Shown here: positions 33,755 to 43,809 of the stretch, piece by piece
Numbering within the stretch: the stretch's first letter is position 1
Layout of the letters: every line of letters begins with the position of its first letter
NCBI GenBank assembly: GCA_041651355.1
Contig: JBAZJK010000001.1
Span: forward strand, 101,883-165,882
Length of the DNA stretch: 64,000 bases
Direction: 5' to 3'
Origin: Patescibacteria group bacterium
GTDB lineage: Bacteria > Patescibacteriota > Patescibacteriia > Patescibacteriales > UBA12465
Notes under the pieces: model-generated
Told to the model about the DNA's origin: nothing
The model's input: the letters and a program-made list of their open reading frames with translations, nothing else
Database searches by the model: none
Translations under genes and position numbers: made by a program

Positions 33755-35569
33755 TTACTTCTTTTCCTTTATCTCCGCTAGCAGCCTCTTGATAAATTCA
33801 GCCTTGTCTAAGCTCTCGGTTTCTTGCTGGCCGCGCGCTCTCACCTGGAGCTGGGGCGAAGCGACTTCCTGGTCTCCGATAACCAGCATATAAGGGTCTT
33901 TCTCCTGGCTAGCTTTCCTGATCTTATTACCCACTGTCTCGTTGTTGCGGTCGATTTCCACCCTGAGGCCATATTGTTTAAGCTCCGCCGCTAATTCTTG
34001 GCAGTAGCTGATATGGGTTTCGCCGACTGGTATCAGCTTGATCTGGGTCGGTGATAGCCACAGAGGGAAGGCGCCGGCATAGTGCTCGATTAATAAGCCG
34101 ATAAACCTTTCGAATGATCCGAAAAGGGCGCGGTGCAGCATATAAGGGGCTTCATCTTGCCCTTGGTTATTGGTGAATTGCATGTCAAAGCGTTCGGGCA
34201 GGTTGAAATCGAATTGCAGGGTTGAACATTGCCATTCGCGTCCCAGGGCGTCTTTTACCTTGAAGTCCAGCTTCGGCCCGTAGAAGACTGCGCCGCCGAT
34301 GTCTTTAGAATAATTTAATTTCTTGTCTTGGGCGACTTTTTCTAAGACTTGTTCCGTAAAAGACCAGCCGGCTTCGCTTCCTGCATATTTAGTGTTTTGG
34401 GGATCACGGACAGACAAGTAAACTTTGGCATCTTCTAGTTTGAAGCCGAAGGATTTATAAATAAAGAGGATGAAATCGACGACCCGTTTTAACTCTTCTT
34501 CTACCTGGTCGGCTCGACAGATGATATGGGCATCATCCTGGGTGAAGCCGCGTACCCTAGTCAGTCCGCTTAGTTCGCCTTTTTTTTCAAAGCGATATAC
34601 GGTGCCGCACTCCGCCCAACGCATCGGGAAATCCCGATATGAATGCAGGGAGTGTTTGTAGATCCTGACGTGGAAGGGACAATTCATGGGCTTGAGCAGA
34701 TAATTTTCTGATTCTTTAACCTTTTCCTGGTTTTGGTTATCGCTCAGGCTTTGGCCGACCTCCAGGGGCGGGAACATGCTGTCGTTATAGAAGCCCCAAT
34801 GTCCGGACGTCTCCCATAGGTTCTTATGGCCGATATGAGGAGTGCGGACTAATTGATAGCCGGCCTCTTCGTGAGCCTCATACCAGAAGTCTTCGATTAT
34901 CCGCCATAATTTAGCTCCTTTGGGGTGCCAGAGAGGCAAGCCCAAGCCGACCATTTCATCAATATGGAATAGGTCTAATTCCTTGCCTAAGCGCCGGTGG
35001 TCTCTTTTTTCTGCTTCTAAAAGCAGTCTTAAATATTCATCTAACTCTTCCTTGCTATCAAAAGCTAAGCCATAGATACGGGTTAGCATCTTATTTTTTT
35101 CATCTCCACGCCAGTAGGCACCGGCTAGCTTGTGTAGTTTAAAGCTGCCAGCCTTGATGTCTTTGGTGGAATCGACATGGGGACCGCGACACAGGTCTTC
35201 GAATTTGCCTAAAGCGTAGAAGCTGACGCTCTTTTCGCCCTGATCCTTCAGGTCGCTGATCAGCTCCCGTTTATAGATATCATCTTTGGGGGTATGGGTA
35301 AGGGCTTGGTCGATAGCCTCTTCTCGCCGGCTGAAAGCTAGATCCTGCTTAGCCAAGTGCTGCATTTTCTTTTCTATTGCCTTCAGCTCAGCTTCGCCTA
35401 TCTTGATATCACCAAAGTCGATGTCATAATAGAAGCCATTATCGATCGCTGGACCGATAGCTAATTTAGCTTCAGGGTAGAGCTCGCTGACCGCATAAGC
35501 TAGGATATGGGCTAGCGAATGCCGTTTGGTCATCAGGTCGAACTCCTGGTTTTTTTTGTCTTTACTCAT
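33755..35569 (-). CDS. thrS: threonine--tRNA ligase (no N-terminal TGS domain)
   Basis: It starts directly at the editing-domain HSLAHILAYAV...AIGPAIDNGFYYD. Class II core motifs and a C-terminal anticodon-binding domain are present. 604 aa. Confidence 0.95.
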   Translation of the reverse strand: MSKDKKNQEFDLMTKRHSLAHILAYAVSELYPEAKLAIGPAIDNGFYYDIDFGDIKIGEAELKAIEKKMQHLAKQDLAFSRREEAIDQALTHTPKDDIYKRELISDLKDQGEKSVSFYALGKFEDLCRGPHVDSTKDIKAGSFKLHKLAGAYWRGDEKNKMLTRIYGLAFDSKEELDEYLRLLLEAEKRDHRRLGKELDLFHIDEMVGLGLPLWHPKGAKLWRIIEDFWYEAHEEAGYQLVRTPHIGHKNLWETSGHWGFYNDSMFPPLEVGQSLSDNQNQEKVKESENYLLKPMNCPFHVRIYKHSLHSYRDFPMRWAECGTVYRFEKKGELSGLTRVRGFTQDDAHIICRADQVEEELKRVVDFILFIYKSFGFKLEDAKVYLSVRDPQNTKYAGSEAGWSFTEQVLEKVAQDKKLNYSKDIGGAVFYGPKLDFKVKDALGREWQCSTLQFDFNLPERFDMQFTNNQGQDEAPYMLHRALFGSFERFIGLLIEHYAGAFPLWLSPTQIKLIPVGETHISYCQELAAELKQYGLRVEIDRNNETVGNKIRKASQEKDPYMLVIGDQEVASPQLQVRARGQQETESLDKAEFIKRLLAEIKEKK

Positions 35570-35591: not shown

Positions 35592-35790
35592 AAAAAAATC
35601 TCGTTCTGGTAATTCAAATAAACTTTAAATTACTAGAACGAGATTCCCATCCCGCGGTTCCATCTAGTTTTTTAGCTGTTGAAGCTAAACGCTTGATTGA
35701 TTGTTCCTTAAATTGGGGCCTAGGCCTTAGCGAGCGCTAACTCAGCTTGGTGGGCTGAGCAATCTTTAAGTATTGTTATTATAGAGCTTT
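35592..35790 (-). promoter_or_regulatory. T-box leader (Thr) with terminator/antiterminator upstream of thrS
   Basis: On the minus strand there is a TATAAT -10 (35778-35783) and a T-box sequence AGATGGAACCGCGGGA (35651-35665). The antiterminator has helix A1 CTAGA/TCTAG, bulge TGGAACCG and helix A2 CGGGA/TCTCG. A competing 19-bp terminator hairpin plus T7 lies at 35592-35645. An ACC codon sits in a 7-nt loop CCACCAA (35749-35751). Confidence 0.6.
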
Positions 35791-35809
35791 ATTAGCCGGC
35801 TGTAAAGAC

Positions 35810-36574
35810 TTAGCCTTTGGCTAGGGCGAGACCCCAGACTTTAAGCGCTCCCGCTCTTTTTAAGGTTTTAGCGGCTTCTTCCAGGGTGGTGCCGGTCGTA
35901 GCAATGTCGTCGAGCAATAAGACTCCTAGTCCTGTCAGGCTTTTCCCCTTCCAGACGAAACTAGCTTCTAGATTGTCGAAGCGGCGGCTAGCCTGCAGAC
36001 TTGATTGGGCTGGCGTGTGGCGGATTTTTTTTAAAGCATCGCTATAATTAAGACCAGGCATGTCTTTAAGTAGGGCGGAGGCTATTAATTCGCTCTGATT
36101 ATAGCCGCGGTAGGCGCGGCGCTTAGCGCTGATTGGAATCGGGATCAAGAGAGGTTGGCTAGCGAGGAAATTTTTTAGAGGATTATGCCGTATAGCCCGG
36201 GGGATCACTTTTTCCAGGAATTCAGGCCAGTCTCCTTCGTTATGAGAAAGGGCAGCCACCAGGAAGGCGCCCAGCGGTTCAGCTAAAGATTTCAGCCCAG
36301 AAAATTTAAATTTTTTAATCAGCTCGGCGAGGAGTGGATCTTGATAATTACCTGCTATAAAAGCGCCGTCTAGAGCGTGATGTTTTTGGCAGTCTGGGCA
36401 GCTTTGGCCAGCCGGACTGGTCCTATTACAAAACAAGCAGCTTTGTCGGCCTAGGAAATTAAGCTTCATCAGGCAATCCTGACACAAGTAATGTTTAGCC
36501 CGGCCGCAGGCCAGGCATTCGATCGGAAACAGAAAGTCTAGGATCGAGCGGCGGATTTTAGATAATAAGTCCAT
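35810..36574 (-). CDS. comF: ComF-family protein (double zinc ribbon plus phosphoribosyltransferase domain)
   Basis: N-terminal CLACG...CQDC and CLFC..CPDC, plus the PRTase motif VLLLDDIATTGTTL. Confidence 0.8.
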   Translation of the reverse strand: MDLLSKIRRSILDFLFPIECLACGRAKHYLCQDCLMKLNFLGRQSCLFCNRTSPAGQSCPDCQKHHALDGAFIAGNYQDPLLAELIKKFKFSGLKSLAEPLGAFLVAALSHNEGDWPEFLEKVIPRAIRHNPLKNFLASQPLLIPIPISAKRRAYRGYNQSELIASALLKDMPGLNYSDALKKIRHTPAQSSLQASRRFDNLEASFVWKGKSLTGLGVLLLDDIATTGTTLEEAAKTLKRAGALKVWGLALAKG

Positions 36575-36653
36575 AAAATAAAAAGCCCGGTCATTATAGC
36601 ACCCGGGCTTTTAGAGGAAGTAAAAGTAATGATGAATTTTATCTAAAACGATC

Positions 36654-37892
36654 TTAAGGCAGGTCGATCTTATATAATTTTTGGCTTTGTTTGTCGGTAA
36701 AGTAGAGGTTTTTCTGATTGTTTGAGACCATTATTTGGGAGATGTTATATGAAGATTCGGGCACGGCGATCAATTTCTTTTGTCCGGTTTTGAGGTCGAT
36801 TACATAGAGATCGTCTTTAGTGCTATCAGCTAACTCTGGAAATAAGCCCGCACCTTGGGGTAGATTTTCTGGAACAGCGCAGTAAACCTTGTCATTGCCG
36901 GCAAAGGTGCATTTATTCGCCCAAGTATTAAGTCCGAGGTCGGTACGGCCGGAGCCGATAGCTTCGCCCTGGGCATTAACCAGCCACAAGCTTGGGTTCA
37001 TGTCGTCGCGGCTGCTGTAAACGCTGTAGAGGAGCCGATCACCCTGGGGCGACCAGCTTGATTTGAAACCACGACCTTCAATGATGGTCGATTTGAAATT
37101 TTCTCCGTTTAAGCCGACGAAAAATACTTCTTGACGATCGAAATCCAGACCACGAGTGAACATAGCGACACTTTGGCCGTTAGGGGACCAGGAAGGATAT
37201 ACTTTATCGGCGTTATTGCCGATTTCTTCGAGGGCCTGAGCCTTGGTCCCATCGCTGTCTGAAATTACCAAAAAGCGATTTTCTACATCTAGACCGAGAC
37301 TTTTGGAACTGAGACGCTGGCTATCGGGTGAAAAAGAGAAATCTTGCCAGTGCTTAGGTATCGTGACCTGCCTTTTTTGGTCGAAATCATAAAAGATTTT
37401 GGAATTATCAGGGTATTCTAGGATGGCTTTATTCTTATCAGGTGCCCAGGTGACTTTCTGGACATTGTGGAAGACTTTATCGCTGATGGCGACGGCCCGT
37501 CCCTGGCTATCGATGCGATAGAATTTACCGTCGTTCGGGTTGTAATATTGGACGGCTTGGCCGTCGCTCGCCAGGGTGGGAGCTAGGGTTGGGCTATCAT
37601 TTAGCGCCCTGGTTTTGGTTAATCCGCCGACCGCGATATTATCTAAACCCTCGTTTGTCGGTATATTAGCCCCAGGCTGCAGGGAGCCGCCGGAGCCAGG
37701 AGTGATGACATTAGTATCGCCTTCACCCGCGACCGGAAAGTTTCCTGGGCTAGTAGTTGCAGTTTGGTTGATAGCTAACTGGGGAGCCCTGGAGCTAAAA
37801 AAAGTCCGCCACAGCAGCCAGGCTAAGAAGATAACCAGGCCCAAAAAAAACAGAATCAGGAAAAGTTTTTTGAAGCGGGCGAAAAAATTCAT
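36654..37892 (-). CDS. TolB-like beta-propeller (PD40/WD40-like repeats) protein, membrane anchored
   Basis: N-terminal TM helix and repeated SWSPNGQSVAM / SWSPQGDRLLY / FSPDSQRL motifs. Confidence 0.7.
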   Translation of the reverse strand: MNFFARFKKLFLILFFLGLVIFLAWLLWRTFFSSRAPQLAINQTATTSPGNFPVAGEGDTNVITPGSGGSLQPGANIPTNEGLDNIAVGGLTKTRALNDSPTLAPTLASDGQAVQYYNPNDGKFYRIDSQGRAVAISDKVFHNVQKVTWAPDKNKAILEYPDNSKIFYDFDQKRQVTIPKHWQDFSFSPDSQRLSSKSLGLDVENRFLVISDSDGTKAQALEEIGNNADKVYPSWSPNGQSVAMFTRGLDFDRQEVFFVGLNGENFKSTIIEGRGFKSSWSPQGDRLLYSVYSSRDDMNPSLWLVNAQGEAIGSGRTDLGLNTWANKCTFAGNDKVYCAVPENLPQGAGLFPELADSTKDDLYVIDLKTGQKKLIAVPESSYNISQIMVSNNQKNLYFTDKQSQKLYKIDLP

Positions 37893-38028
37893 AGAAGATT
37901 TTTTTATTTTTTATTCCTATGCTATAATTAGGTCAGGATTGTTGTTTATTAGGAAGCCTTATAGTATAATTATTATATAATATAAAAAGCGATCTGACAA
38001 TTTTATTCAATTAGTCTTCTTTTAGTAT

Positions 38029-39078
38029 ATGGGCTTATTTTCTGGAGCTAAGGACAATTTTTTTCTCGGCATCGATATCGGGGATTCTTCGATTAAGATG
38101 GTTGAATTAAGGCGCAAGGGCAAGAAGATATTTTTAAATAACTACGCCTTTTCAGAAAACATTGGGGATGTGAAGTTTACTCGGATTGATGATGTCGATT
38201 ACCTGGCGAGCGCTATTACCAAGATTCGGGAGAAAGCCGGGATTACCAGCCATCGAGCCGTGGCCTCTTTGCCGACCTTTTCCGTCTTTTCCTCGATTAT
38301 CAATCTGTCGGGGGTAGAGAAGAAGAATCTGGCCTCGGCCGTAGTTGAAGAAGCGAAAAAAGTAATCCCTCTGCCTTTAGAGGATATGATTTTGGATTGG
38401 AAGATAATTCCCGAAGAAAGCGGCCAAGGAGACAAAAAGAACGTGCGGGTGTTTCTCACCGGTTCGCCTAAGAAATTGGTAAAGAAATATGTCGATATCT
38501 TTAAGAAAGCCAAATTGGAATTAGTCAGTATTGAAACCGAAACCTTTTCGGTCGTCCGTTCACTTTTAGGCAGCGACAAGACTCCGGTCATGATCGTAGA
38601 AATCGGAGCTAACAGCACCGACCTGTCCATCGTTAGGGAGAGTATCCCGATCTTGAATCGGAGCTTGGAAGTTTCCGGCAATACCATCACCGAGCTCCTG
38701 AGCCAGAATCTAGGCATGAGTTTCGCTCAGGCCGAGCAATTTAAATTCGACCTCAGTTTTTCTTTAAATGATGATAGCCGTGAAGCTCTGCCCCAACTGA
38801 TCTTGCAGAGCTTGCAACCGATAGTTAATGAGATGGAATATATGCTAGATTTTTTTCAATCTCAGAATTCCGGTCGGGTAGAGAAGATTATCCTATCGGG
38901 CGGCGGGTCTCTGCTTCTTAATCTAGCCGATTTCTTCGCCCAGAAACTTAATACTAAGGTAATCATCGGTGATCCCTGGAACCGCGTCAGCTATCCGGCC
39001 GATCTGAAGCCAGTCGTCTTGGAAATCGGACCGAAACTAGCTGTGGCCATCGGCTTGGCCCTCAGGGAAATAGAATAG
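38029..39078 (+). CDS. pilM: type IV pilus assembly protein PilM (actin-like ATPase fold)
   Basis: LGIDIGDSSIKMVEL N-terminus and the C-terminal ILSGGGSLL motif. 349 aa. Confidence 0.85.
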   Translation: MGLFSGAKDNFFLGIDIGDSSIKMVELRRKGKKIFLNNYAFSENIGDVKFTRIDDVDYLASAITKIREKAGITSHRAVASLPTFSVFSSIINLSGVEKKNLASAVVEEAKKVIPLPLEDMILDWKIIPEESGQGDKKNVRVFLTGSPKKLVKKYVDIFKKAKLELVSIETETFSVVRSLLGSDKTPVMIVEIGANSTDLSIVRESIPILNRSLEVSGNTITELLSQNLGMSFAQAEQFKFDLSFSLNDDSREALPQLILQSLQPIVNEMEYMLDFFQSQNSGRVEKIILSGGGSLLLNLADFFAQKLNTKVIIGDPWNRVSYPADLKPVVLEIGPKLAVAIGLALREIE

Positions 39079-39101
39079 TTAAGGGTAAATTTATATAAAA
39101 C

Positions 39102-39773
39102 ATGTTTAGCTTCAAGAAAGCTACTAGCAAAATTGACCTCTTGAAAGGTAATCCGGCCAGTTATGCCCATAAGACTGGCAATGTCTGGGAAAATCCTAAG
39201 GTTTTAGAGGTTAATTTGATCAAAGAAAGCGCTAATGTCGAATTTGATTGGAAGCGCAATTTTTCGCGTTTAGGCATATCTGCTCTCATCGCTCTCTTTT
39301 TTATTGTCGAGATATATTTCAGCTTAAGCTGGTGGGAAAAGGAGGAGAATAAAAGGGCTGATGCTTTAGCCGCTGATTTGCAGCAAGTTAATCAGGATAT
39401 AAAACTAGTCAAAACCCAAGCCGATGAATTCTTGACTTTCAAAGACAAACTGACCGCCTTGAAGCCTCTCTTAGACAACCATATCTATTGGACGAATTTC
39501 TTCAGCTGGCTCGAGCGGCATACCTTGAACTCGGTTACTTTCGGAGGCTTTTCCGGCAATACCAGCGGTGTCTATTCTTTGCAGGCAGAAACCAAAAACT
39601 TCAGTGATATCAGCTATCAAGTCAAGGCTTTTTTAGATGCGCCCGAAACCCTGGAAGCCGAGGTCTTGAGCGGACAATCCAGCCAGAGCAAGGATAAAGA
39701 CGGCCGGGTAAAGTCTGGAGCAGTTACTTTTGGCATCGATTTCAAAATCAAGCCGGAAATATTCAAAAAATAA
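39102..39773 (+). CDS. pilN: PilN-like pilus assembly protein
   Basis: Bitopic, with a TM helix at about residues 55-78, a coiled-coil and then an alpha/beta domain. It lies between pilM and the pilO-like gene. Confidence 0.6.
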   Translation: MFSFKKATSKIDLLKGNPASYAHKTGNVWENPKVLEVNLIKESANVEFDWKRNFSRLGISALIALFFIVEIYFSLSWWEKEENKRADALAADLQQVNQDIKLVKTQADEFLTFKDKLTALKPLLDNHIYWTNFFSWLERHTLNSVTFGGFSGNTSGVYSLQAETKNFSDISYQVKAFLDAPETLEAEVLSGQSSQSKDKDGRVKSGAVTFGIDFKIKPEIFKK

Positions 39774-39775
39774 TT

Positions 39776-40399
39776 ATGCGTACTGAGGTTACAAAAACCA
39801 GTCCCTTGATGCAAGTCGTGAACGAACATTTCGACTCTTTATTGATAATGCTTATCATCGTCGTTTTTGTGGCTTCCTATTTTCTCCTGATCAAGCCTAA
39901 GTATGATAATACTATAATCGCTATCAAGGATAATATCAGCCAGCAGGAGAAGCTCTATAGCGAGCAGAAAAGCCGCTTGGAGAGTTTAAAGACCGCGGCG
40001 GCTCTTTATGAGGATATTAAAGATAAGCAATTAGGCGATGTCCGCAAGGTTAACGCCGTCTTGCCGAACGAATACGTGAAAGAGCGCTTATTCGGGGAAA
40101 TGGAAGAAATAATCAATAAGAGCGGTTTTATGCTGGCCTCGGTTAATATCAGCAGTGAAGTAGCGGCGAAAGACGCTGGCCCTGGTAGCAGTCCAGCCAG
40201 CCAGGTTTTACCTAAAGGTGTGGGGCGGCTGTCAGTTTCTGTTTCTATCGGAGCCATCGATTACGCCGGTCTTAAGAATCTGCTCTTCACTTTAGAGAAT
40301 AATAATCGCTTATTGGACGTAGAGAATGTTTCTTTTGATCTGGGAGCCAAGACCGCCAACCTGGAAATGTATACCTATTATTTCAAGCCTAGTCTATGA
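39776..40399 (+). CDS. pilO: PilO-like pilus assembly protein
   Basis: Bitopic protein with a coiled-coil. Assigned from its position after pilN and a 4-nt overlap with the next ORF. Confidence 0.55.
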   Translation: MRTEVTKTSPLMQVVNEHFDSLLIMLIIVVFVASYFLLIKPKYDNTIIAIKDNISQQEKLYSEQKSRLESLKTAAALYEDIKDKQLGDVRKVNAVLPNEYVKERLFGEMEEIINKSGFMLASVNISSEVAAKDAGPGSSPASQVLPKGVGRLSVSVSIGAIDYAGLKNLLFTLENNNRLLDVENVSFDLGAKTANLEMYTYYFKPSL

Positions 40400-40821
40400 A
40401 CCAGCGCAAGCCGATAATCTTATACATCTTTTTAGGCCTGATAATCTTAGGCGGCGTTTTGTTGTTTTTCTTGCGTTCCTGGGCCTTCGATCTGATTAGC
40501 AATAGCAGCCTGCGGGGATTAAACGATATTTTAAATACCCCGGTCCGGACGAACGCTCAACAGGCTCTTGATCTAAGCTTGTTGCAAGATAAGCGTTTTA
40601 TGAATTTGAAGAACCAAGTGGTTAATTTTGATTATGATAATTTCGGCCAGGTAGGAAGCGCTAATGACGTTATCGTTACCGATTTGGAACAGCCTAGGCC
40701 TGAAGAAATAGCCAGCACGACCGCCGGGGAAGAGGTCGCTTCCAGTTCTAAGCCTGCTCAGACGGTTAAGATCAGGGTCGACATCGGCAATAATAATCTA
40801 TTCTTGAAAAAAACTAAGTAA
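40396..40821 (+). CDS. bitopic hypothetical protein in the pilus operon
   Basis: 141 aa with an N-terminal TM helix, translationally coupled to the pilO-like gene. Confidence 0.5.
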   Translation: MNQRKPIILYIFLGLIILGGVLLFFLRSWAFDLISNSSLRGLNDILNTPVRTNAQQALDLSLLQDKRFMNLKNQVVNFDYDNFGQVGSANDVIVTDLEQPRPEEIASTTAGEEVASSSKPAQTVKIRVDIGNNNLFLKKTK

Positions 40822-40828
40822 AAATGAC

Positions 40829-42583
40829 ATGGACAAGAGGGAACAGCTCTTAAATTTATTAGTCCAGAAACAGATAATTAATCTGATCCAAGCCGGAGAT
40901 ATCATGAAAAGCGTCCAGGCCAACAAGAAGGACCTGGCTGATTTTTTAATAGAAGAGAAGATAATAGATGAAGAGCAATTGACCCAGGTGAAAGCGGAAA
41001 TGTATAATCTCCCTTATTTTTTAGTCCAAGACGAATCTATCCCAGAAGGCATCCTTAATTTTTTACCGGAAGAAATCGCTAGGAATTATAACATCATCTG
41101 TTTAGCTAAGGATAAGAAGCTAGTTAAGATCGGCTTGGTCGATCCCGATCCTCGGGCCATGGAAGCCGTCAACTTCCTAGCTAGCGATGAAAAGCTGAAG
41201 GTGGAATACTGCCTGATTTCCCGGACCAGCTGGGATAAGGTTTTTAAGCAATATCAGAAGATAGAAGAAGAAATTTCTTCCGCTTTGGAACTTAAGGCTA
41301 AGGAAGAAGGGGATGAATTAGTCCAAGTCAAGACCGAGTCTGAGAGTTTGGGTGACGATGATATTAACAGTGCGCCGGTTTCCCGTATCGTTTCTGTGGT
41401 TATCCGCCATGCTGTCGAGGCTCGGGCGAGCGATATCCACATTGAACCTTTCGGGAACGAAAGCCGCGTCCGCTATCGTATCGACGGTATTTTGCATACC
41501 TCCTTAACTCTGCCCAAGAGCATCCATAACGCTATTATCGCTCGCGTCAAGGTTTTGGCTAAATTGAAATTAGATGAAACCCGGGTGCCTCAGGATGGCC
41601 GCATCCGGCTGCTGATTAATAATCGGGAAATCGATTTTCGTATTTCTACCCTGCCTTTAGCCAGCCAAGAAAAAGTGGTGATGAGAATCTTGGATACGGT
41701 GAAGGGCGCTCCAACCTTGGAAGATTTGGGTTTTAATAAGATCGCCTTAAATTCGATTCTAGAGGGAATCAAAAAAACCAATGGCATTTTCCTGGTTACT
41801 GGTCCGACCGGTTCAGGTAAGACTACTACTTTATACGCCCTCATGAATATCTTGAATAAGGAAGGGGTAAATATCTCCACCTTGGAAGACCCAGTCGAAT
41901 ACGAACTTAAAGGCGTTAACCAGTCCCAAATCAGGCCTAAGATAGGTTTCAGTTTTGCTAATGGCTTGCGCTCTCTTTTGCGCCAAGATCCCAATATCAT
42001 CATGGTGGGAGAAATCCGCGATGAAGAGACCGCCGAATTATCTATTCACGCTTCTTTAACTGGTCACTTAGTCTTATCCACCTTGCATACCAATGATGCT
42101 ATCGGTTCTATCTTCCGTCTATTAGATATGAAAATCGAGCACTTCCTATTGGCTTCCACCTTAAAGACCGTCGTCGCCCAACGTCTAGCTCGCCGCCTCT
42201 GTCCGAATTGCCGCCAGGCTTTCAAGCCTGAAGCCGAGATGTTGGATATCATTATTAAAGAATTTGGCGATTTACCGGAAAATCTAATTAAAGCTGAATA
42301 TCCAGAATTCACTACCTTGGATGCTCTGCGGAACGTTTCTTTCTATAAGGAGGTCGGTTGCAGTCATTGTGAAAACACGGGCTTTTCTGGTAGAATTGCG
42401 ATTGCCGAAGTTATCGCTATTAATGAAACTTTGAAAGAGATGATTAATAATAATGATAAGAATCTTAATATTGGGGCGGTTAAGAAGAGTCAGGATTTTA
42501 TTTCTATCAAACAGGATGGATTCTTTAAAGTTATTCAAGGAGTCACCACTATGGCTGAGGTCTTAAGAGTAATCGAGAGTTAA
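40829..42583 (+). CDS. pilB: type IV pilus assembly ATPase PilB (GspE family)
   Basis: GSPII_E N-terminal domain, Walker A GPTGSGKTT, Asp/His boxes and a tetracysteine CPNC...CSHC. Confidence 0.92.
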   Translation: MDKREQLLNLLVQKQIINLIQAGDIMKSVQANKKDLADFLIEEKIIDEEQLTQVKAEMYNLPYFLVQDESIPEGILNFLPEEIARNYNIICLAKDKKLVKIGLVDPDPRAMEAVNFLASDEKLKVEYCLISRTSWDKVFKQYQKIEEEISSALELKAKEEGDELVQVKTESESLGDDDINSAPVSRIVSVVIRHAVEARASDIHIEPFGNESRVRYRIDGILHTSLTLPKSIHNAIIARVKVLAKLKLDETRVPQDGRIRLLINNREIDFRISTLPLASQEKVVMRILDTVKGAPTLEDLGFNKIALNSILEGIKKTNGIFLVTGPTGSGKTTTLYALMNILNKEGVNISTLEDPVEYELKGVNQSQIRPKIGFSFANGLRSLLRQDPNIIMVGEIRDEETAELSIHASLTGHLVLSTLHTNDAIGSIFRLLDMKIEHFLLASTLKTVVAQRLARRLCPNCRQAFKPEAEMLDIIIKEFGDLPENLIKAEYPEFTTLDALRNVSFYKEVGCSHCENTGFSGRIAIAEVIAINETLKEMINNNDKNLNIGAVKKSQDFISIKQDGFFKVIQGVTTMAEVLRVIES

Positions 42584-42603
42584 TTTAGCTTAGTTTTCAT
42601 CAT

Positions 42604-43809
42604 ATGCCAATCTATCAATATAAAGCTGAAGCCAAGAACGGAAAAATCCGGACAGGCAAGATTGTTGGTCTCAACGAGAAAGAGGTCGAATTTAAACTAC
42701 GTAAACAGGAGCTAAACTTAATCAGCTTGATCGAAGCTAGCCAGTCGCCCATGGTAAAGTTGTCTCTGCTAATCCAGAGGGTGAAGCCTAAGGATTTAGT
42801 TATTTTTTCTCGGCAATTTTCCGTGATGATCAGCGCTAATATGCCGGTCGTAGAATCGCTAATGATCTTAGTGGACCAGACTAATAATTTCCCTTTGAAG
42901 AGCATTATCGCCGACATCGCTCTTGATGTTGATAGCGGCTCGCTCTTATCTGATGCTTTTGCTAAGCGGCCGAAGATCTTTTCTGAATTCTTCGTCAATA
43001 TTATCAAATCTGGAGAAACTTCAGGTAAATTAGATGAAGTCTTGAATTATTTGGCCGATGAGATGGAAAAGAACTATGATATGGTTTCCAAGATCAGGGG
43101 CGCCATGATTTATCCGCTTTTTATTATCTGCGGTTTGATCGGAGTCGGCATCATCTTGATGATTTATGTTATTCCTAACCTAACCGCGATTCTGACTGAA
43201 ACTGATATTGCTTTGCCCTGGTCAACGCGGGCGGTCATCGGTTTGTCTAATTTTTTGCGTCATTTCTCTTGGCTGGTTGTCCTCATCGTCGCCGGTTTTA
43301 TATTTTTGATGCGTTTGTATCTGAAGACTACCGGTGGTCGTCGGAATTTTGATCTTTTAAAAATCAAGCTGCCGATTTTTGGCAAGCTGTTCAAGTATAT
43401 TTATCTGATGCGCTTCACCCGCTCGCTCAGCACCTTGCTCAAAGGCGGCGTAACGATTACTAAGAGTTTGGAGATTACGGCTGATGTCGTCCGAAATGAG
43501 ATCTATCGGGAACTCATCATGCAGACTTTGCAATCGATCAAAGACGGTAACCCCTTGGCCACCGTCTTCGATTCCAGCGATTATGTACCGAAGATGGTGC
43601 CACAGATGATTTCGGTCGGTGAACGCAGCGGTAAGATGGAAGTAGTCTTGGATAAGATTTCTGATTTCTATACGCGCGAATCCACTAATATGTTAAATAG
43701 CTTGAGCACGATCATGGAGCCCTTGATCATGGTGATTATGGGTATCGGTGTGGCCATCATGGTCGCGGCCGTCTTGTTGCCGATGTATAATCTCGGACAA
43801 CAGTTCTAA
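42604..43809 (+). CDS. pilC: type IV pilus platform protein PilC (GspF family)
   Basis: 401 aa with two T2SSF repeats and 3 TM segments. Confidence 0.9.
   Translation: MPIYQYKAEAKNGKIRTGKIVGLNEKEVEFKLRKQELNLISLIEASQSPMVKLSLLIQRVKPKDLVIFSRQFSVMISANMPVVESLMILVDQTNNFPLKSIIADIALDVDSGSLLSDAFAKRPKIFSEFFVNIIKSGETSGKLDEVLNYLADEMEKNYDMVSKIRGAMIYPLFIICGLIGVGIILMIYVIPNLTAILTETDIALPWSTRAVIGLSNFLRHFSWLVVLIVAGFIFLMRLYLKTTGGRRNFDLLKIKLPIFGKLFKYIYLMRFTRSLSTLLKGGVTITKSLEITADVVRNEIYRELIMQTLQSIKDGNPLATVFDSSDYVPKMVPQMISVGERSGKMEVVLDKISDFYTRESTNMLNSLSTIMEPLIMVIMGIGVAIMVAAVLLPMYNLGQQF

Follow-up and report, generated by a model that had tools for sequence, protein, structure and literature searches.

Can a T-box leader without a recognizable long Stem I still read its tRNA and decide whether RNA polymerase enters a synthetase gene? 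T-boxes are the textbook case of one RNA reading another, and the question is raised by a leader of about 200 nucleotides (nt) on the minus strand of a 64,000-nt stretch of the genome of an ultra-small Patescibacteria group bacterium (contig JBAZJK010000001.1, positions 101,883 to 165,882; hereafter the window, in whose coordinates all positions are given). The leader lies between a comF-like gene and thrS, the gene of threonyl-tRNA synthetase (ThrRS), and a preliminary description had suggested that it might be a T-box of reduced, branched architecture. Our analysis supports such an architecture, both by the behavior of the Rfam T-box model RF00230 on this sequence and by compensatory changes in two helices of the 5' domain, P0 and P1, among related leaders. 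Judging from these sequence data, we consider the leader probably a functional, strongly reduced T-box, which would serve as a tRNA-Thr(GGU)-responsive transcription attenuator of thrS.

The 3' half of the leader consists of a T-box discriminator and a terminator, followed by a gene for which Pfam domains agree with the earlier assignment as thrS:

35806..35592, minus strand, thrS leader, comprising promoter, 64-nt closed junction, T-box discriminator, terminator and U7
35690..35706, minus strand, A-rich linker GAACAAUCAAUCAAGCG, ending in the purine-rich AAGCG just 5' of Stem III
35671..35689, minus strand, Stem III, UUUAGCU-UCAAC-AGCUAAA, then AAA, from the RF00230 alignment and folding
35633..35667, minus strand, antiterminator, composed of A1, T-box bulge and A2, from the RF00230 alignment and the minimum free energy (MFE) structure of the truncated RNA
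35667-35663 with 35637-35633, minus strand, helix A1, CUAGA/UCUAG
35662-35656, minus strand, 7-nt T-box bulge UGGAACC, whose UGGA would pair with a tRNA 3' UCCA
35655-35638, minus strand, helix A2, GCGGGA-UGGGAA-UCUCGU, 6 base pairs (bp) closed by a G-U pair
Minus strand, T-box core CUAGAUGGAACCGCGGGA, present as previously claimed
35592..35645, minus strand, intrinsic terminator, a 49-nt hairpin (35645-35597, -23 kcal/mol) followed by U7 (35598-35592)
33755..35569, minus strand, thrS, encoding a ThrRS of 604 amino acids (aa), ATG at 35569

The RF00230 alignment runs base for base through Stem III and the antiterminator, and the antiterminator was the MFE structure when the RNA was cut after A1; the canonical core and antiterminator of the preliminary description are thus borne out. 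In detail, its helix A1 stands, while a canonical 7-nt bulge and a 6-bp A2 describe the sequence better. The terminator had been given 19 bp; its stem has about 21 pairs (11+10, with one mismatch). As its 5' arm is formed by the 3' strands of both antiterminator helices, terminator and antiterminator are mutually exclusive, as had been proposed, and in the fold of the full-length leader the terminator hairpin captures both of these strands. Stem III is preceded by AAGCG, a purine string of the RRRNG type, and followed by AAA, matching the 5' RRRNG and 3' AA that flank Stem III in T-boxes (PMC7778990). The thrS ATG follows 22 nt after the end of the U tract, and no Shine-Dalgarno-like or otherwise purine-rich ribosome-binding motif was found in between, so that the expression platform is a transcription terminator rather than a Shine-Dalgarno sequestrator. 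The UGGA bulge, which occurred in every thrS T-box core listed in our data set, whether reduced or canonical and in other phyla as well, predicts a tRNA-Thr with discriminator base U73. The whole leader folds better than its shuffled versions (z = -4.8; 0 of 200 shuffles as good), and this T-box core is the single one in the entire 64-kb window. Weak Rfam matches at 35595-35647 on both strands (microRNA precursors of plants and insects, and Srn266) were not accepted as separate features, as they are explained by the long near-perfect palindrome of the terminator.

The 5' half is a different matter. A search with RF00230, of the kind advised in the preliminary description, gave at permissive settings a match at 35779..35631 (31.4 bits, local E = 2.7e-5) and no normal Stem I with another specifier. 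In its alignment, 88 Stem I model positions were deleted and collapsed to 3 nt, the positions of Stem II and Stem IIA/B were not meaningfully filled, and no Stem I was found in the 501 nt searched. At Rfam gathering thresholds, only three tRNAs and no T-box were reported in the window. The 11 relatives that matched RF00230 scored 28-49 bits, which places the whole leader family below the Rfam threshold. By its presumed mechanism and its discriminator the element is a T-box, whereas in Stem I, K-turn, platform and score it falls outside the curated family.

In place of a long Stem I, the leader has a compact domain directly downstream of a promoter:

35778..35806, minus strand, sigma-70-type promoter, -35 TTTACA (35806-35801), 17-nt spacer, -10 TATAAT (35783-35778), 11 of 12 consensus matches
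35765..35770, minus strand, 5' strand of P0, CUUAAA, pairing with 35707-35712
35760..35764, minus strand, junction strand J5', GAUUG, lying directly between P0 and P1 in all aligned leaders
35741..35759, minus strand, specifier hairpin P1, CUCAGC/GCUGAG stem with the 7-nt loop CCACCAA (35753-35747)
35749..35751, minus strand, putative specifier ACC, a Thr codon, followed by a conserved A at 35748
35727..35740, minus strand, variable hairpin P2, UUAGC-GCUC-GCUAA
35717..35726, minus strand, small hairpin P3, GGC-CUAG-GCC, abutting J3'
35713..35716, minus strand, junction strand J3', CCAA
35707..35712, minus strand, 3' strand of P0, UUUAAG

Transcription is expected to start at about 35771, the 5' edge of P0, from the TTTACA-17-TATAAT promoter (35806..35778), of which the -10 element had already been noted. 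The 5' domain comprises 64 nt, with P0 enclosing three hairpins. This CTTAAA/TTTAAG closure of three short hairpins, pointed out in the preliminary description, is present and recurs with covariation in 20 other genomes, and so is the ACC followed by A that had been located in the 7-nt loop of the first hairpin. The P1 loop is unpaired in both the MFE and the centroid folds. With ACC-A upstream of a ThrRS gene, codon and gene stand for the same amino acid and a purine comes after the codon, as is usual for a specifier; the codon is placed in a 7-nt terminal loop rather than in an internal loop under the S-turn of a long Stem I. Pairing of the loop CCA in cis with UGG of the bulge was considered and set aside, as it would be limited to 3 bp, the fourth position being an A-A clash, and would be equally possible for any ACC-A specifier.

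A set of homologous leaders allowed us to ask how much of this domain is maintained. The closest ThrRS genes were sought in GTDB genomes and JGI metagenomes, and all were from Patescibacteria (CPR, for candidate phyla radiation); a protein search yielded many more ThrRS at 68-92% identity, and eleven of these loci were retrieved. Including the window, 21 distinct leaders of the same plan were found upstream of thrS in Patescibacteria (the window, L161, L001 [= L173], L002, L009, L010, L013, L014, L019, L039, L082, L084, L086, L092, L164 [= L165], L166, L167, L168, L169, L170 and L172), belonging to genes whose ThrRS are 49-92% identical to that of the window. They share a common order of P0, GAUUG, a 6-nt stem strand, a 7-nt loop, the second 6-nt stem strand, one or two hairpins, CUAA or CCAA and the 3' strand of P0. 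Twenty leaders were aligned by anchor-based extraction (alignment A2), which replaced a MAFFT alignment of whole 5' domains (A1) in which the 3' strand was misaligned because the inserts vary. In A2, 89% of the cells of the 12 P0 and P1 pairs were paired versus 54% with shuffled partners, a value reached by 0 of 500 shuffles, and only 18-42% were paired when the 3' partner was slid by 1-3 columns. Changes on both sides, i.e., compensatory changes, were found in all 12 pairs, with 96% pairing in P1 and 82% in P0. A covariance model of the 5' domain only (R1), built from 12 leaders and searched against 0.97 Mb of loci plus the window, matched only upstream of thrS or thrS operons. Its matches included eight members outside the seed, among them the newly found leader L039, and in its own alignment of 23 matches 92% of the cells were paired, compared to 53% in shuffled and 23-43% in slid versions. 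The comparison of thrS leaders from related genomes suggested in the preliminary description thus shows that the fold covaries and that ACC is conserved.

Within this covarying frame, single-stranded elements are strongly conserved. AUUG of J5' is invariant, its leading G being replaced by A in L161 only (AAUUG). J3' reads CUAA in 17 of 20 leaders and CCAA in the window, L167 and L168, so that its C and both A residues are invariant in A2. ACCA in the P1 loop is invariant in all 20 aligned leaders and is also present in L039; the loops read CCACCAA, CUACCAA, UUACCAG, UUACCAA or CCACCAC (YYACCAN), with pyrimidines at positions 1 and 2 and U at position 2 in 14 of 20. Most relatives conform to a loop consensus C-U-NNN-A-A, which resembles that of an anticodon loop. 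By contrast, the hairpin at the place of P2 in the relatives is conserved neither in sequence nor in length, and at P3 the differences between L161 and the window are confined to the loop. The insert between P1 and CUAA consists of two abutting hairpins in 13 of 20 leaders, and the typical shape of the domain is therefore a four-way, cloverleaf-like junction with no linkers among P1, P2 and P3. That ACCA is invariant while the P0 and P1 stems vary by compensation argues for selection on the loop sequence and its presentation. ACC and CCA are the only triplets invariant in the loop, and since ACC is a Thr codon, is followed by a purine and precedes thrS, we take P1 to be an ultrashort Stem I with a terminal-loop specifier.

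The 3' domains of the relatives are in line with this conservation. Helix A1 covaries (CUAGA/UCUAG, CUGGG/CCCAG, CCGGG/CCCGG and UCAGG/CCUGA); RNAalifold on the 3' domains recovered A1 only, mispairing UGG of the bulge, and was used for A1 covariation alone. A terminator hairpin with U5-7 overlapping the antiterminator was found in 18 of 20 leaders, in 17 of these as a strong hairpin of -23 to -40 kcal/mol, and the other two have a terminator hairpin with an interrupted U tract. The newly found leader L039 (93-270) has the bulge UGGAAAC rather than UGGAACC, and a one-base bulge in P0.

Conservation of the specifier loop bears directly on the idea that the element is a relic, in which the discriminator alone would work, sensing any uncharged UCCA-ended tRNA or acting as a constitutive attenuator, with the 5' junction as a remnant or general stabilizing fold that reads no codon. 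A Stem I that is unrecognizable to RF00230 would fit such decay, as would the distant relative L120, which seems to possess a discriminator only, directly after its promoter, and the complete loss of the leader from some related thrS genes, e.g., in L171. Decay, however, does not account for an ACCA that is invariant across 20 leaders whose ThrRS share as little as 49% and at most 92% identity with that of the window, nor for two helices kept by compensatory changes, and we regard a relic as improbable. Escherichia coli thrS is preceded by an operator that mimics the anticodon arm of tRNA-Thr, and ThrRS itself might similarly bind P1, leaving the T-box part with a secondary role. The gene is indeed thrS, and the P1 loop fits the anticodon-loop pattern Y-U-NNN-A-A in most relatives. 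The loop, however, carries the codon ACC, complementary to the Thr anticodons (GGU, UGU and CGU) that ThrRS recognizes, and a complete discriminator for a tRNA 3' end plus terminator is conserved alongside P1. A protein operator of this type is therefore very improbable.

The promoter position speaks to another conventional explanation, namely, that the T-box is an ordinary one and that its long Stem I was overlooked further upstream, within the end of the comF-like gene. All that would lead one to look there is the generic expectation for transcriptional T-boxes. Between the upstream gene and P0 lies a near-consensus promoter, not only in the window but also in 17 of 20 relatives; in those 17 leaders, promoters with 9-12 of 12 consensus matches end 10-21 nt before GAUUG, leaving no room for a long Stem I. 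Together with the failure of RF00230 to detect one in the sequence searched and with upstream neighbors that change among relatives (comF-like genes, a glycosyltransferase and others) next to an unchanged 5' domain, this renders a missed Stem I hardly credible.

Harder to judge is the exact fold around GAUUG. The linker at 35690-35706 contains two overlapping copies of CAAUC (CAAUCAAUC), perfectly complementary to J5', and GAUUG might pair with CAAUC, either as a pseudoknot with P0 or as an alternative closing helix. The function would then be the same, with this pairing playing the part of the Stem IIA/B pseudoknot and without a GAUUG/CUAA junction motif. Downstream stretches of at least 4 nt complementary to J5' occur in 12 of 20 leaders, versus 6.5 ± 2.0 in shuffled sequences (about 1% of 1000 reach 12), the MFE fold of the window uses GAUUG:CAAUC, and in the variant leader L162 GAUU is contained in a 9-bp helix with AAUC. 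The complement is absent, however, from 8 of 20 leaders and varies in position, sometimes falling inside Stem III; linkers are A/U-rich, making short matches cheap; and the zero linker between P0 and GAUUG would be sterically awkward for an H-type pseudoknot. As GAUUG is invariant, covariation cannot test this pairing. On balance, we consider the alternative fold rather unlikely.

The reduced T-box with a P0-closed junction, which we favor, appears to lack the architectural modules of its larger counterparts. Judged from sequence and secondary structure, the 5' domain has no tandem G-A signature of a K-turn, and no distal Stem I elbow platform, as P1 ends in the specifier loop and P2 and P3 are unconserved. 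Nor did we find a signature of a Stem II S-turn or a Stem IIA/B pseudoknot in the region from P1 to the linker, which is made up of one or two short variable hairpins. GAUUG/CUAA was also considered as a K-turn, and this was rejected: the three P0 pairs beside the junction are formed in 95-100% of leaders, so that the 3-nt bulge of a K-turn is absent. The sequence presumably resembles the UAA/GAN internal-loop motif. Standing in the place of the K-turn, the conserved GAUUG/CUAA strands would take over its architectural role and may define the angle at which the specifier hairpin meets the strand running to the discriminator.

A tentative sequence of events can be outlined for the favored reading. 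Transcription would start a few bases before P0, and the first 64 nt would fold into the cloverleaf-like junction P0-P1-P2-P3, in which P1 displays ACC-A in its 7-nt loop. The anticodon-loop shape of this loop in most family members leads us to propose a loop-loop contact: the anticodon loop of tRNA-Thr would pair with the P1 loop, and the usual arrangement, in which an internal specifier loop reads the tRNA with support from a long Stem I, K-turn and Stem II, would thereby be replaced. The A-rich linker would be followed by the purine string and Stem III and then by A1, the UGGAACC bulge and A2. An uncharged tRNA bound to the leader would pair through its 3' end with UGGA and hold the antiterminator, and RNA polymerase would read into thrS. 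With charged tRNA, or with none, the 21-bp terminator and its U7 would form instead and transcription would stop. Both tRNA binding and the loop-loop geometry are inferred here. It is possible, at a probability that we place a little short of even, that these leaders constitute a minimal terminating T-box class in Patescibacteria, without K-turn, elbow platform or Stem II clamp and with two contacts to tRNA-Thr only, namely, P1 loop to anticodon loop within the GAUUG/CUAA four-way junction and 3' end to discriminator.

Comparison with known systems sets this proposal in relief. The window leader resembles the canonical transcriptional T-boxes (RF00230; e.g., Bacillus subtilis tyrS, thrS and glyQS) in its 7-nt UGGN-ACC bulge between A1 and A2, in having a purine string and Stem III with AA ahead of A1, in the competing terminator with U tract, in a codon that matches the synthetase and has a purine after it, and in the location in an aminoacyl-tRNA synthetase leader. 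Unlike them, it has no long Stem I, K-turn, elbow-stacking distal bulge and loop, Stem II or Stem IIA/B pseudoknot, and its specifier, which they place in an internal loop with an S-turn, lies in a 7-nt terminal loop. It spans 138 nt from P0 through the end of A1, about two thirds of the 219-position Rfam model. A truncated Stem I without elbow platform is also found in those translational actinobacterial ileS T-boxes whose Stem I is intermediate or ultrashort (PMC7583486, summarizing Sherwood et al. 2015 and the structures 6UFG and 6UFM); they read tRNA identity essentially at the anticodon only (PMC7583486). These, however, sequester the Shine-Dalgarno sequence and keep a K-turn and a clamp of Stem II S-turn and IIA/B pseudoknot, whereas the window leader has a terminator and no sequestered ribosome-binding site, shows neither signature and has a closing helix, the GAUUG/CUAA junction and variable hairpins instead. 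An ultrashort Stem I with terminal-loop specifier has so far been described for these translational ileS T-boxes; here it seems to be combined with a terminator platform. Glycine (glyQS) T-boxes resemble the window leader in being naturally minimal, with Stem I, linker and discriminator and without Stem II, which has been explained by pairing of the GGC codon with the GCC anticodon of tRNA-Gly (PMC7583486). They keep, however, a full Stem I with K-turn, specifier loop and platform, while the window leader has an ACC codon and no platform.

Transfer RNAs with complementary anticodons form unusually stable complexes. By analogy to this case, which is not a regulatory system, two 7-nt anticodon-type loops, with ACC in P1 and GGU in tRNA-Thr, could face each other in the proposed contact, and this would explain a useful affinity from three base pairs without extra contacts.

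Several observations weigh against the functional reading. The RF00230 score of 31.4 bits is far below the gathering score of 93. In the window, the MFE fold closes the 5' domain via GAUUG:CAAUC and not via the all-A-U P0, and the P1 loop has C, not U, at the position equivalent to U33. The J3' site in A2 was chosen as the best pairing of one to four CYAA candidates, and for this reason the independent covariance-model check (A5) was made. Neither the window nor any of 173 loci yielded a tRNA-Thr gene, so that GGU anticodon and U73 are predictions. Only thrS examples were found, all of them Thr-specific; neither near hisS (L169) nor near aspS (L171) in related contigs was a T-box core detected. 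Finally, transcriptional T-boxes generally depend on a long Stem I and its elbow platform to capture tRNA quickly, and a short Stem I hardly binds tRNA when Stem II is missing, working only with a Stem II clamp and in translational control (PMC7583486); transcriptional T-boxes also have longer Stem I's than translational ones (PMC7778990, the TBDB paper). As the window leader possesses neither platform nor Stem II, its mechanism is unproven.

The thrS genes of other Patescibacteria offer a broader view on leader reduction. A second reduced thrS T-box type was found in L003 (1340-1500, Moraniibacteriota), L004 (1330-1490), L015 (= L093; 1220-1420, Wolfebacteria) and L022 (1290-1440, Portnoybacteria). 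It has in common with the window leader the phylum, the gene, the UGGA discriminator and ACCA in a terminal loop, here of 7-9 nt on a 4-5-bp stem (CUACCAA in L003). It differs in keeping a GA-motif, GAUGAG.../...GGAGC, of K-turn-like character directly under the specifier hairpin and in having no P0, GAUUG, P2/P3 or CUAA junction, and R1 matches its hairpin only. In three of these leaders (L003, L004 and L022), no simple terminator follows the antiterminator; instead, what precedes the 3' U run is complementary to the 5' strand of Stem III. With this second type, short terminal-loop specifiers seem to be the rule for thrS in the phylum, and the junction type of the window would seem to be one of at least two solutions in Patescibacteria thrS leaders.

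Variants and losses were also observed. L162 (= L163; 9790-9900), a variant of the window's own family with a ThrRS 78% identical, has GAUU as part of a 9-bp closing helix (GAUUAACGU/ACGUUAAUC), no CUAA strand and the specifier UUACCAA in a loop closed by a bulged stem. L120 (Ga0247841_10000908, 190-400) has a perfect TTGACT-17-TATAAT promoter and, starting within about 10 nt of it, AAGCG, Stem III, an antiterminator (CUAGAUGGAACCGCG) that has a large insertion, and then a terminator and U run, all upstream of a 129-aa open reading frame (ORF) located before thrS. Neither a Stem I nor an ACC hairpin was visible in this stretch, and the leader may be a discriminator-only T-box. No T-box-like leader was found at thrS of L171 (9560-10001), L006, L007, L008, L011, L012, L081 and L083, one of these leaderless genes encoding a ThrRS 69% identical to that of the window, which makes the element patchily distributed.

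As to the genomic surroundings, the product of the window's thrS contains the tRNA_SAD, tRNA-synt_2b (class II core) and HGTP_anticodon domains (Pfam) and matches at 100% a protein from a Patescibacteria metagenome-assembled genome named threonine--tRNA ligase. The gene upstream of the leader is as follows:

35810..36574, comF-like gene, encoding double zinc ribbon and phosphoribosyltransferase domains (Pfam)

It belongs to a conserved synteny around thrS, seen in the window (35810-43809) and in L161-L169 and L173, in the order of type IV pilus assembly genes (PilM-like, T2SSE ATPase and T2SSF), a gene for a 410-420-aa protein, the comF-like gene, T-box and thrS. Elsewhere, two-gene operons with an extra ORF before thrS lie under a reduced T-box (L014, 800-1500; L019, 716-1500; L170, 8355-9111); this ORF encodes a GNAT acetyltransferase in L170 (Pfam) and is unannotated in L014 and L019.

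The TBDB paper looked for its truncated-Stem-I class only in Actinobacteria or among matches to the Rfam model (PMC7778990). In the literature that we searched, no paper ties T-boxes to CPR/Patescibacteria; this coverage is incomplete, and an earlier description is possible. Nearly all T-boxes have a K-turn, and a review asks whether any T-box works without one (PMC7583486). The conserved, covarying family presented here, of about 140 nt, ended by a terminator and seemingly without platform, K-turn or Stem II clamp, makes this question testable with a natural RNA and provides a compact scaffold for engineering tRNA sensors. If the minimal-class reading is true, these leaders would be the smallest natural tRNA-sensing attenuators and a counterexample to the long-Stem-I rule for transcriptional T-boxes. 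For the genome-reduced CPR bacteria, our data suggest that thrS is regulated by a riboswitch that Rfam-based annotation misses.

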